From the NCBI RefSeq assembly GCF_013122565.1, contig NZ_CP053258.1: a stretch of DNA of 64,000 bases; one strand, given 5' to 3'. The notes below the pieces were generated by a model. That model worked only from the letters and a program-made list of their open reading frames with translations. It was not told the DNA's origin and ran no database searches. The stretch is from Escherichia coli (lineage in GTDB: Bacteria > Pseudomonadota > Gammaproteobacteria > Enterobacterales > Enterobacteriaceae). Position 1 is the stretch's first letter, and each line of letters starts with the position of its first letter. The translations under genes were made by a program, and so were the position numbers. This document shows, piece by piece, positions 109 to 48,897 of this stretch.

Positions 109-1223
109 GCCTGTTTATCCTCATTGCCTGGCTGATGTTCGGTTTCTGTAGGTTGCTGGTTATGACGTCTGCGCTGGTCAACGGCGCTGGCGACTGCGTG
201 CACACCAACAGCCGCTGCCACCACGCCAAGCGCGGTTAAACCGACGGTATCGGCGGTGGAATGAGTACCCATTTGCGGAATATCGACCACGCGGCTGTAG
301 AACGAACCGCGATCCCAGAAACCATTTTCCGCACAGCCCAGGCAGCCGTGACCAGACTGGATTGGGAAAGAAACGCCATCATTCCAGCGTGTGGAGGAAC
401 AGGCGTTATAGGTGGTAGGCCCTTTGCAGCCCATTTTGTACAGGCAGTAACCTTTGCGGGCAGCGTCATCATCCCAACTCTGGACGAACTCTCCGGCGTC
501 GAAGTGGGCGCGGCGATAGCATTTATCGTGGATTCGCTGACCATAGAACATCAATGGACGGCCCATTCTGTCGACATCTGGCAAGCGATCAAAGGTCACC
601 ATGTAAGTAATGATGGCGCTCATCACATCCGGGATCGGCGGGCAGCCAGGTACTTTGATAATGGGTTTGTCGGTGATGACTTTGTCGATAGGCGTTGCCT
701 GTGTCGGATTAGGTCGCGCGGCCTGCACGCAGCCCCAGGACGCGCAGGTTCCCCAGGCGATAATCGCACTGGCTCCGGCAGCGGCACGTTTAAGTTTCTC
801 AATAAACGGTCGTCCGCTGCTGATACAGAACATCCCCTGCTCGCCCAGCGGCGGATTACCTTCTACTGCGAGGATATATTTGCCATTGTATTGCGTGATG
901 ATGTCTTCAAAGACTTCTTCCGCCTGGGTTCCGGCGGCAGCCATCAAAGTATCGTCATAATCGAGGGAAATCAGGGAAAGGATGACGTCCTTTGCCAGCG
1001 GGTGAGCGGAGCGGATAAAAGATTCGGTACAGCAGGTGCATTCCAGACCGTGGATCCATACCACCGGAATGCGCGGTTTGTTCTCCAGCGCCCAGGCAAT
1101 CTTTGGTGCCATTCCCGCGCCTAATCCCAGCGACGTGGCAGCCAGACTGCAATATTTGAGAAAGCTGCGTCGGGTAACGCCCTGACGCCGCATGGCCTGG
1201 TAAAATGTTTCCTCGTTATTCAT
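105..1223 (-). CDS. hyaA: Hydrogenase-1 small subunit HyaA with Tat signal (RRSFLK), 372 aa
   Basis: ORF 105..1250 trimmed to the [25 protein letters not shown] start; Cys-rich [NiFe] small-subunit motifs. Confidence 0.93.
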
Positions 1224-1608
1224 ATCGCACGTCTCTTCTCCTTGCGACACCGGCAGGACACCGGGCGCTTATGGTCGGCAAGCGACGTCCCTGTAGCAAG
1301 GCAAACCATCGCTTCACGTGAGATGCTGAAAACGAAAGCTCATCCTTCTGCACTGGCGCACGTCGCCAGAAAGTATTGTTAATAAAGCGTAGTGAAACTT
1401 TTGCACAAAACAATACAAACTGTGTGGATTTATCTTTTAGCGATAAAAATGGACCTATTTTTCTTTTTGCCGGGCGGTGGGGATGTTTAGCCAGTTGCTA
1501 AACAAGTAAAAGAGAAGGAATTCATGGTGATGAAATGATCAATCTGCTGTTATTTCACGCTATTAATGCACTTTTGGCTGTTTTTCAGGCAAACAAACAA
1601 ATTAGGGG

Positions 1609-1637
1609 TTTACACGCCGCATCGGGATGTTTATAGT
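1609..1637 (+). promoter_or_regulatory. Putative sigma70 promoter of serT (TTTACA-17 nt-TATAGT, GC-rich discriminator)
   Basis: TTTACA at 1609-1614, TATAGT at 1632-1637, then GCGCGTC just before the tRNA 5' end. Confidence 0.5.
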
Positions 1638-1649
1638 GCGCGTCATTCC

Positions 1650-1737
1650 GGAAGTGTGGCCGAGCGGTTGAAGGCACCGGTCTTGAAAACCGGCGACCCG
1701 AAAGGGTTCCAGAGTTCGAATCTCTGCGCTTCCGCCA
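1650..1737 (+). tRNA. serT: tRNA-Ser (anticodon UGA), 88 nt with long variable arm
   Basis: GGAAGTGTGGCCGAGCGG...GGTTCCAGAGTTCGAATCTCTGCGCTTCCGCCA; anticodon loop CTTGAAA; T-loop GTTCGAATC. Confidence 0.95.
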
Positions 1738-15075: not shown

Positions 15076-16836
15076 TTGACCATTACGAAACTTGCATGGC
15101 GTGACCTGGTTCCTGATACCGATAGCTATCAGGAAATATTTGCTCAGCCACATTTGATTGACGAAAACGATCCTTTATTCAGTGATACTCAACCGCGACT
15201 GCAATTTGCGCTGGAGCAGTTGCTGCATACGCGAGCATCCTCCTCTTTTATGCTGGCGAAGGCCCCGGAAGAGTCTGAGTATCTGAATCTTATTGCCGAT
15301 GCCGCGCGTACGCTACAAAGCGATGCAGGCCAACTGGTGGGCGGTCACTATGAGGTTTCCGGCCACTCCATCCGCTTACGTCACGCAGTGAGTGCAGATG
15401 ATAATTTTGCGACTTTAACGCAAGTTGTCGCTGCCGACTGGGTAGAAGCGGAGCAACTCTTTGGCTGCCTGCGCCAGTTTAATGGCGACATTACCCTGCA
15501 GCCTGGTCTGGTGCATCAGGCAAATGGCGGTATTCTCATCATCTCTTTGCGTACACTGCTGGCGCAACCTCTTCTGTGGATGCGGCTGAAAAATATCGTT
15601 AACCGCGAGCGTTTTGACTGGGTTGCGTTTGATGAGTCGCGCCCTCTCCCCGTCTCTGTGCCTTCGATGCCATTGAAGCTGAAAGTCATTCTGGTAGGCG
15701 AACGCGAATCATTGGCTGATTTCCAGGAGATGGAGCCAGAGCTTTCAGAGCAGGCTATTTATAGCGAATTTGAAGATACTCTGCAGATTGTCGATGCGGA
15801 GTCAGTAACCCAGTGGTGTCGCTGGGTGACATTTACCGCCAGACATAATCACTTACCTGCACCGGGAGCGGATGCCTGGCCGGTACTTATCCGCGAAGCA
15901 GCACGCTACACCGGTGAACAAGAAACGCTGCCGCTTAGCCCGCAGTGGATCCTCCGCCAGTGTAAAGAGGTCGCCTCCCTGTGTGATGGCGACACCTTCT
16001 CCGGCGAGCAGCTAAACTTAATGCTACAGCAGCGTGAATGGCGCGAAGGTTTCCTCGCTGAACGCATGCAGGATGAGATCCTTCAGGAGCAAATCCTGAT
16101 TGAAACCGAAGGCGAACGCATCGGGCAAATTAACGCCCTTTCGGTCATTGAATTTCCGGGTCATCCACGCGCTTTTGGCGAACCTTCTCGCATTAGCTGC
16201 GTTGTGCATATTGGCGATGGTGAATTCACCGACATCGAGCGCAAAGCGGAGCTTGGCGGCAATATCCATGCGAAAGGGATGATGATCATGCAGGCGTTCC
16301 TGATGTCGGAACTACAGCTTGAGCAACAGATCCCCTTCTCAGCATCGCTGACATTTGAGCAGTCATACAGTGAAGTTGATGGAGATAGTGCCTCGATGGC
16401 TGAACTCTGCGCCCTGATAAGCGCCCTCGCCGATGTGCCGGTGAATCAGAGTATCGCTATCACAGGTTCAGTCGATCAGTTCGGTCGCGCCCAGCCGGTC
16501 GGTGGTTTAAATGAGAAAATCGAAGGCTTCTTTGCTATTTGCCAGCAACGTGAGTTAACCGGGAAACAAGGTGTCATTATCCCCACAGCTAACGTTCGCC
16601 ATTTAAGTCTTCACAGTGAACTGGTGAAAGCAGTAGAAGAAGGCAAATTCACCATCTGGGCAGTAGACGATGTGACTGACGCACTGCCGTTATTATTAAA
16701 TCTGGTGTGGGATGGCGAAGGCCAAACGACGCTGATGCAAACCATCCAGGAACGTATCGCGCAAGCATCGCAACAGGAAGGACGTCACCGTTTTCCATGG
16801 CCATTACGTTGGCTGAACTGGTTTATTCCGAACTGA
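15076..16836 (+). CDS. ycbZ: Lon-related protease-domain protein YcbZ, 586 aa, apparent TTG start
   Basis: ORF 15076..16836; C-terminal Lon S16-like region ([16 protein letters not shown]...GGLNEKIEG); no Walker A GxxxxGK[ST] seen; first codon TTG. Confidence 0.88.
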
Positions 16837-16904: not shown

Positions 16905-17423
16905 ATGGTAGATAAACGCGAATCCTATACAAAAGAAGACCTTCTTGCCTCTGGTCGCGGTGAACTGTTTGGCGCTAAAGGCCCGCAATTGCCAGCACCG
17001 AACATGCTGATGATGGACCGTGTGGTCAAAATGACCGAAACGGGTGGTAACTTCGACAAAGGGTATGTTGAAGCAGAACTGGATATCAATCCGGATCTGT
17101 GGTTCTTCGGATGCCACTTTATTGGCGATCCGGTTATGCCGGGATGCCTGGGCCTGGACGCGATGTGGCAGCTGGTAGGGTTCTACCTCGGCTGGCTGGG
17201 CGGCGAAGGTAAAGGCCGCGCGCTGGGCGTTGGCGAAGTGAAATTCACTGGTCAGGTACTGCCGACAGCGAAAAAAGTGACCTACCGTATTCACTTTAAA
17301 CGCATTGTTAATCGTCGTCTGATTATGGGTCTGGCAGATGGCGAAGTGCTGGTTGATGGTCGTCTGATCTATACCGCCAGCGACCTGAAAGTCGGTCTGT
17401 TCCAGGATACGTCTGCCTTCTGA
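16905..17423 (+). CDS. fabA: 3-hydroxydecanoyl-ACP dehydratase/isomerase FabA, 172 aa
   Basis: ORF 16707..17423 trimmed to [23 protein letters not shown]; ATG confirmed at 16905. Confidence 0.95.
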
Positions 17424-17444
17424 TTATAATCAGACAGAGTATCA

Positions 17445-17480
17445 AAAGGCGAAACCTCCGCAATGCGGAGGTTTCTTTTT
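17445..17480. terminator. Bidirectional terminator between fabA and rmf
   Basis: Stem CCTCCGC / GCGGAGG, loop AAT, T-run on plus strand and A-run (T-run for rmf) on the other side. Confidence 0.75.
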
Positions 17481-17492
17481 AAAGAGACAGAA

Positions 17493-17660
17493 TCAGGCCA
17501 TTACTACCCTGTCCGCCATGGCTTCTCGCCAGCCTCCCAGCCATTGTGACCTTTGATTCAGCGTCTGATAGGGACACATTTCTTTTGAGCGTCCGGCGAT
17601 GCCGGCCTGATAACCACGTTGATGTGCCCGTTCCAGGCGATCTCGTTTTTGTCTCTTCAT
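17493..17660 (-). CDS. rmf: Ribosome modulation factor Rmf, 55 aa
   Basis: Absent from the ORF track (under 60 aa). Hand translation of the reverse complement gives MKRQKRDRLERAHQRGYQAGIAGRSKEMCPYQTLNQRSQWLGGWREAMADRVVMA. Confidence 0.92.
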   Translation of the reverse strand: MKRQKRDRLERAHQRGYQAGIAGRSKEMCPYQTLNQRSQWLGGWREAMADRVVMA

Positions 17661-17915
17661 GCCTCGTTTCCCTCATACTGGTTTCTGGTGGAAAAGAAAA
17701 CAGTGATTACTAAATGTGCAATCACAGTTAAGCAATACCGCGAATCATAACTGCCGTCAATGCGCAAAATTCACGCCACTGTCATATTTGTGAGCTACAC
17801 GGGCATGTCAGTTGTACAAAAAATGTGAAGAGGAACAACTTTTTCTGCACGTTAGAAACAAAAAAACCGCCTCAGGCAACATACCGGAGACGGTTATATT
17901 TACAAATCTTTATAA

Positions 17916-18479
17916 TTAAGGTAGACGCTTTATCTCTTGTGCAATAGAAGCGGCTTCCTGACTCCAGACACTGGCCAGCACTTTGACCATGTCATCGTAA
18001 CCATCCTGCGTTTGCACCCCTTCCAGACGGAACGGACGTTTGATCAGTTGTCCCTGGTGGTTCAACAGCCACTCCCCACTGACAATGACCTTGCCATCAT
18101 AGCGACCGTTAAACTCCGTTACGGTAACATTGAGCGTGTCCTGGGCGCTTCCCAGAGGCTGGGAGGCAACCACCCAGCCGGGCAGTTGCGTGCTCAGGTT
18201 GGCTACCAGGGTGTTGCGCAACTGTTGATCCAACGGGCTGGCCCACAAGTTGTTGTTGGCAATCACATACTTCACATCACTGGTTTGATAAACCACACCA
18301 TTCCCCGCCAGATAGTCAGGTACAGCGACCTGCTCTACCCATAACAGGCGATTACCCTGGCTGGCGGTACTTTGTGTACCGCTCTGCACCACAGGTAACT
18401 GGTAATAGTTTTTATTAATTTCGCCGGAGCTGCATCCGGCCAGCCACAGTGCTGCAATCGTCACTAGCCACTTTTTCAT
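17916..18479 (-). CDS. pqiC: Lipoprotein PqiC (YmbA), 187 aa
   Basis: ORF 17916..18479; lipobox LAGC in MKKWLVTIAALWLAGCSS. Confidence 0.9.
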   Translation of the reverse strand: MKKWLVTIAALWLAGCSSGEINKNYYQLPVVQSGTQSTASQGNRLLWVEQVAVPDYLAGNGVVYQTSDVKYVIANNNLWASPLDQQLRNTLVANLSTQLPGWVVASQPLGSAQDTLNVTVTEFNGRYDGKVIVSGEWLLNHQGQLIKRPFRLEGVQTQDGYDDMVKVLASVWSQEAASIAQEIKRLP

Positions 18480-48871: not shown

Positions 48872-48897
48872 AAGCCCGCTGAAAAGCGGGCTTTTTT
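48872..48897. terminator. Bidirectional terminator between aspC and ycbL
   Basis: Stem AAGCCCGCT / AGCGGGCTT, loop GAAA, then TTTTTT. Confidence 0.85.

Follow-up and report, generated by a model that had tools for sequence, protein, structure and literature searches.

Introduction

In Escherichia coli that enters stationary phase or starves, rmf, the gene encoding ribosome modulation factor (Rmf), is transcribed under the control of ppGpp and cAMP-CRP; its regulation is independent of RpoS (PMC8778775; PMC6134199). [quoted passage not shown] This unusually stable message is translated from a structured leader with two Shine-Dalgarno elements. The two candidates, SD1 and SD2, lie approximately 11 nt and 2 nt before the rmf AUG, and a stem over positions −41 to −1 with a bulged SD1 was described as the basis of the polyamine stimulation of Rmf synthesis (PMC7177335). 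A transcription start at −58 has been published (PMC6134199). On the 30S subunit, the protein binds helix 28 of the 16S rRNA and the anti-Shine-Dalgarno region, and it blocks initiation; R3 and K5 contact helix 28, while R45 contacts C1536 of the anti-Shine-Dalgarno sequence (PMC8126665). Rmf shifts the conformation of the 30S subunit, allowing two 70S ribosomes to form a dimer that is then stabilised, and matured to the inactive 100S 'hibernating' ribosome, by HPF (PMC8778775; PMC8126665).

Here we describe the rmf locus in a 64-kb stretch of E. coli DNA (64 000 nt, hereafter the window). A first-pass annotation had reported that the gene was invisible in a list of open reading frames (ORFs) with a 60-aa cut-off, and that a longer minus-strand ORF of 65 aa was listed in its place. 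We assessed the identity of both ORFs, their conservation in homologous loci and the structure of the rmf leader.

Materials and methods

Homologues were collected by searching metagenome contigs with a degenerate rmf DNA pattern, which gave 120 loci. From these, 105 distinct complete rmf coding sequences, including that of the window, were extracted. They comprised 24 distinct homologues of the enterobacterial type (55–56 aa), which together with the window make up the set of 25 enterobacterial sequences, and 80 more distant ones. Chance occurrence of open frames across rmf was estimated by a recoding simulation of 100 000 trials, in which Rmf was back-translated with synonymous codons sampled according to the codon usage of the window.

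Results

Identification of rmf

With ORFs listed down to 20 aa, a 55-aa ORF starting with ATG and ending in a TGA stop was identified on the minus strand (Table 1), encoding the polypeptide MKRQKRDRLERAHQRGYQAGIAGRSKEMCPYQTLNQRSQWLGGWREAMADRVVMA. A phmmer search showed 55/55 identity (E = 2.7e-34) to the PDB chains 6h4n_v and 4v8g_AV, both named 'Ribosome modulation factor', and the product was also 100% identical to the Rmf chains of the hibernating-ribosome structures 6H58 and 9IOT. The hand translation in the first-pass annotation, according to which a minus frame other than the listed one encodes an exact Rmf with its own TGA, was therefore correct. The protein search that it had proposed as a check also matched the Pfam family RMF (PF04957) at 79.6 bits (cut-off 27.9; E = 1.7e-22) over model positions 1–52 of 53, and the NCBIfam equivalog NF011162 at 92.1 bits (cut-off 40) over model positions 1–47 of 47. 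In a large protein collection the exact 55-aa sequence carries the name RMF_ECOLI and is found on at least 1000 contigs. Residues R3, K5, R11, G16, G23, C29, P30, W40, G43, W44 and R45, needed for ribosome binding or dimerisation according to mutagenesis (PMC8126665), are all present in the window's Rmf. Re-reading of the rmf frame (17493..17660) revealed no frameshift and no premature stop. A pseudogene reading of rmf was rejected on the grounds given in the Discussion.

Genomic context

The gene order pqiC-rmf-fabA and the orientation of the three genes are common to the window, K-12 MG1655 and strain 14EC033 (RefSeq), and RefSeq rmf is at the homologous position in both 14EC033 and MG1655 (b0953). 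A 601-bp query around rmf found a match in 5425 of 5426 complete E. coli genomes, and the matched stretch carries annotated rmf and fabA. The window as a whole is collinear with approximately 969–1033 kb of MG1655, reverse-complemented, at 98–98.7% identity. Between the convergent rmf and fabA genes lies a G+C-rich hairpin with T-runs on both strands, a bidirectional intrinsic-terminator-like site common to the two genes.

Table 1. Coordinates of features at the rmf locus (positions in the 64-kb window)
Feature	Coordinates	Strand	Description and basis
fabA	16905..17423	+	Convergent downstream neighbour; ORF translation includes the 172-aa FabA; RefSeq annotation transferred from 14EC033
Terminator-like hairpin	17451..17475	both	11 pairs, G+C-rich, T-runs on both strands; between convergent rmf and fabA
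65-aa ATG ORF	17479..17676	−	+2 frame relative to rmf; chance open frame, not a gene
rmf CDS	17493..17660	−	55 codons and TGA; ribosome modulation factor; ORF listing, profile and structure matches
55-aa GTG ORF	17546..17713	+	Antisense to rmf; second chance open frame, under the 60-aa cut-off
SD2 (proximal Shine-Dalgarno), GAGG	17663..17666	−	Sequence and PMC7177335
SD1 (distal Shine-Dalgarno), GAGGG	17670..17674	−	Begins with the G of the −16 AUG; sequence and PMC7177335
Pyrimidine tract, CUGUUUUCUUUUCCACC	17686..17702	−	Little or no variation in most columns across 25 enterobacterial leaders
Leader hairpin, GUGAUUGC-ACAUUUA-GUAAUCAC	17703..17725	−	8 predicted pairs, −65 to −43 from the AUG; fold prediction and covariation
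pqiC	17916..18479	−	Upstream same-strand neighbour; coordinates transferred from 14EC033; indel-free alignment established for 17300..17900

Two further features of the surrounding DNA were recorded. A short hairpin, GTTGCCTGAGGCGGT, followed by a run of seven T (TTTTTTG), is present on the minus strand at 17866..17880, about 35 nt past the pqiC stop; it is likely to be the terminator of pqiABC, parting that operon from the rmf promoter. At a distance from rmf, in the gap between gloC and aspC (approximately 48882..48892), the window is without a segment of about 160 bp, made of REP-like palindromic units, that is present in K-12 (MG1655; 16321..16484 of the extract L003). In K-12 this segment contains GCCGGATGCGGC... 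and GTAGGCCTGATAAGCG..., and is bounded by repeated AAAAAGCCCGCTTT; its presence or absence is an ordinary strain polymorphism.

Conservation of the rmf reading frame

In all 105 homologous coding sequences an ATG was found exactly 45 nt ahead of the GYQAG motif, and K5, R6, R11 and R45, none of them imposed by the search pattern, were invariant. Pairwise differences per site at codon positions 1, 2 and 3 were 0.174, 0.076 and 0.383 among the 25 enterobacterial sequences, and 0.378, 0.300 and 0.584 among all 105. The homologue L057, for instance, differs from the window at 2, 1 and 14 sites in the respective rmf codon positions. These substitution patterns show that the rmf reading frame is under purifying selection.

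A further copy was noted in Enterobacter sp. EA-1 (L004, CP025776.1; approximately 261..493 on the minus strand), where rmf is seemingly frameshifted. The N-terminal MKRQKRDRL runs on in an alternative frame, and another ORF holds the C-terminus of Rmf (NQRSEWLGGWRQAMEDRAVIA); the cause is probably an indel error of the assembly and not pseudogene formation.

The overlapping 65-aa ORF

At the default cut-off of 60 aa, the 65-aa ORF was the sole ORF listed between fabA and pqiC (17440..17900). It starts 16 nt upstream of the rmf AUG and hence is in another frame. No match to Pfam or NCBIfam was found for its product at E ≤ 1, and no Shine-Dalgarno-like or purine-rich element was identified in the sequence upstream of its AUG (CCACCAGAAACCAGU). 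This AUG falls within the conserved AUGAGGG, overlapping SD1 of rmf.

The −16 AUG was kept in 22 of the 24 enterobacterial homologues and missing in two. The frame starting from it was cut to 39 aa or less in 11 homologues and was open for at least 55 aa in another 11, in which its length ranged from 55 to 216 aa, indicating that the stop of the 65-aa frame is not conserved either. Identity of the alternative-frame product to that of the window was 30–87% across the 24 homologues, whereas that of Rmf was 75–95%; in L063, for example, nucleotide identity was 87%, with Rmf at 91% and the alternative frame at 67%. Among the 80 more distant homologues, 79 had between one and nine stops in the frame of the 65-aa ORF. 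The third position of rmf codons, which is the most variable, coincides with the first codon position of the 65-aa ORF, and the second, which is the least variable, with its third. As substitutions are mostly at rmf third positions, the 65-aa frame has a substitution pattern opposite to that of coding sequence.

In the recoding simulation, the frame was open for at least 60 codons from the −16 AUG in 10.6% of synonymous rmf recodings, and in 70% one or more of the five other frames had no stop across rmf. A second ORF of this kind, 55 aa long with a GTG start, is antisense to rmf (Table 1). It had no Pfam or NCBIfam match, and its frame was stop-free across rmf in 29.7% of the recodings. The 65-aa ORF thus showed neither occurrence beyond chance, nor conservation of its product, nor similarity to a known family, and is no gene but a by-product of the rmf sequence without selection of its own. 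It is open since the codons of rmf happen to make no stop in the +2 frame, with the conserved SD1 motif AUGAGGG supplying the AUG.

These results uphold what the first-pass annotation had stated about this ORF, namely its presence on the track, its being the one frame shown there while rmf was hidden by the cut-off, and its spurious, out-of-frame nature.

The rmf leader

The leader reads ...GUGAUUGCACAUUUAGUAAUCAC-UGUUUUCUUUUCCACCAGAAACCAGU-AUGAGGGAAACGAGGC-AUG, and the AUGAGGG motif was present in 23 of the 25 enterobacterial leaders. In the predicted fold, UUCC of the pyrimidine tract pairs with GGGAA of SD1. This predicted pairing is consistent with the published stem and its bulged SD1 (PMC7177335).

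A hairpin further upstream (Table 1) was assessed by covariation in the 25 sequences, where 87.4% of cells were paired and 15 cells were changed on both sides. Neither value was reached in any of 500 shuffles (shuffled mean of both-sides changes 5.7), and all slid controls were exceeded. In one leader (L103) the stem is made from a wholly different sequence. The published transcription start falls inside the 5' arm of this hairpin, so that either the start or the reading of the RNA structure needs revisiting.

A sigma-70 consensus scan of 17300..18100 detected no promoter. By eye, TTGACG (17755..17760) and TATTGC (17732..17737), separated by a 17-nt spacer, form a candidate promoter that fails the criterion of the scan. 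With TATTGC as the −10 element, transcription would start at approximately −65, making the hairpin 5'-terminal. A stem at the 5' end would fit the known stability of rmf mRNA, reportedly the subject of a study by Aiso et al. in 2005, and the hairpin may be a 5' stabiliser of this long-lived message.

Rfam searches at E ≤ 1 gave no match to any family bar three sub-threshold hits to leader families, all of which were on the hairpin between rmf and fabA. These three were rejected as chance matches, with scores far under the gathering scores.

The 65-aa ORF in public annotation

The exact 65-aa sequence has been deposited as ACT70914.1, labelled 'ribosome modulation factor', from E. coli O157:H7 TW14359 (CP001368.1). 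The same sequence is found as EFJ93212.1 and EFU50567.1, where the name given is 'hypothetical protein' and the source an HMP strain, E. coli MS 153-1. In CP001368.1 and GG773194.1, the gene calls list nothing between pqiC and fabA other than the 65-aa product (1501..1698 of the extracts L126 and L125); these calls have no Pfam match, and no separate 55-aa rmf call is listed. The first-pass annotation had generalised that small real genes of the window can be hidden behind artefactual frames. For rmf this holds, and it extends to these two GenBank records. Within the window it is limited to rmf, as this is the sole RefSeq CDS of less than 60 aa in the collinear region of K-12.

Discussion

Taken together, the data leave us highly confident that the minus-strand CDS at 17493..17660 is the chromosomal rmf of E. 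coli and that the 65-aa ORF overlapping it is an open frame not under selection. As a textbook stationary-phase gene that is the same as the K-12 copy, this rmf is known already and involves no new biology.

Two other explanations were considered. The 55-aa ORF could be a mobile (phage- or ICE-borne) paralogue of the Rmf/CrpP fold, or an inactive copy, instead of the housekeeping gene, and the protein does score weakly with three related models, Rmf_CrpP_fam (51.1 bits), Rmf_like_phage (24.1 bits) and CrpP_fam (19.8 bits). The top score, however, is that of the equivalog model for true Rmf, far over its cut-off, while the phage and CrpP models stay under theirs. In addition, the pqiC-rmf-fabA context is conserved and chromosomal, almost every E. 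coli genome has just one copy of rmf, and the DNA of the leader, coding sequence and terminator is the same as in K-12, which makes a mobile or inactive copy vanishingly improbable. Conversely, the 65-aa ORF could itself be a gene that overlaps rmf and is translated, or else a regulatory uORF whose −16 AUG competes with rmf initiation. It starts with ATG, is longer than rmf and has its exact product deposited as a protein in GenBank; moreover, the retention of its AUG in nearly all enterobacterial homologues, and of an open frame in almost half of them, is above naive expectation. Yet these entries were called automatically and have no evidence behind them, and one of them simply bears the rmf name. 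The AUG, which is not preceded by a Shine-Dalgarno-like sequence, belongs to the nearly invariant AUGAGGGAAACGAGG block with rmf's own SD1 and SD2, so that a coding role need not be invoked for its conservation, and the persistence above naive expectation can be attributed to the conserved SD1 motif together with shared ancestry. Against translation there are also the breakage of the frame in 13 of 24 close and 79 of 80 distant homologues, the inverted variability of its codon positions, the lack of a family match and an open frame being expected by chance in about a tenth of recodings. We consider an overlapping gene or competing uORF to be highly unlikely, and no report of translation in this frame at rmf was found in the literature searched.

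A narrower version concerns Escherichia, where the conserved −16 AUG could occasionally be used, with weak translation of the 65-codon frame, or of just its opening codons, as an overlapping uORF and with the ribosomes that initiate there covering SD1 and SD2. To this we give only a slim chance; if true, use of the −16 AUG would add a layer to the polyamine- and structure-dependent control of Rmf synthesis.

With the CDS read as rmf and the 65-aa ORF as a chance frame, the locus illustrates how a fixed 60-aa cut-off combined with the habit of taking the longest ORF swaps a real 55-aa gene, whose product has solved structures, for a meaningless 65-aa frame. Genome scans need homology or profile checks on ORFs below the threshold, and listed ORFs in themselves are not evidence of genes.

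Because of the sequence identity with K-12 rmf, the regulation and the ribosome-binding mechanism known from the literature would be expected to apply to the window's rmf as well; hpf is located outside the 64-kb window. In K-12 (b0953) the coding sequence, about 150 nt of upstream leader and promoter, and the terminator, including the hairpin at 17451..17475, are base-for-base the same as in the window. The closest differences in MG1655 are single-base changes at least 150 nt upstream of the AUG and within fabA, with none in the gene.

Comparison with related systems places the locus further. Rfam family RF01755, the 'rmf RNA motif', a 5'-leader motif of Pseudomonas, is likewise a structured element upstream of rmf, but the enterobacterial hairpin, with no match in Rfam, is a different sequence. 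With the Rmf/CrpP-fold family (NF041886) the window's Rmf has the signature of a small two-helix fold in common and scores above the cut-off of 28, whereas it is below the cut-offs of both the phage Rmf-like model NF041887 (40) and the CrpP model NF033696 (55); the window's rmf is chromosomal, not on a mobile element. Longer Rmf variants from other gammaproteobacteria (66–77 aa; metagenomic loci such as L006, L010, L017, L038, L092 and L105) end in a conserved C-terminal extension, GWREGR.D.WDG..GVSG.HK..., which the enterobacterial 55-aa form lacks. Their N-terminal 50 residues, however, have the same invariant residues, with K5, R6, R11, G16, G23, C29, P30, W40, G43, W44 and R45 common to these variants and the Rmf of the window.
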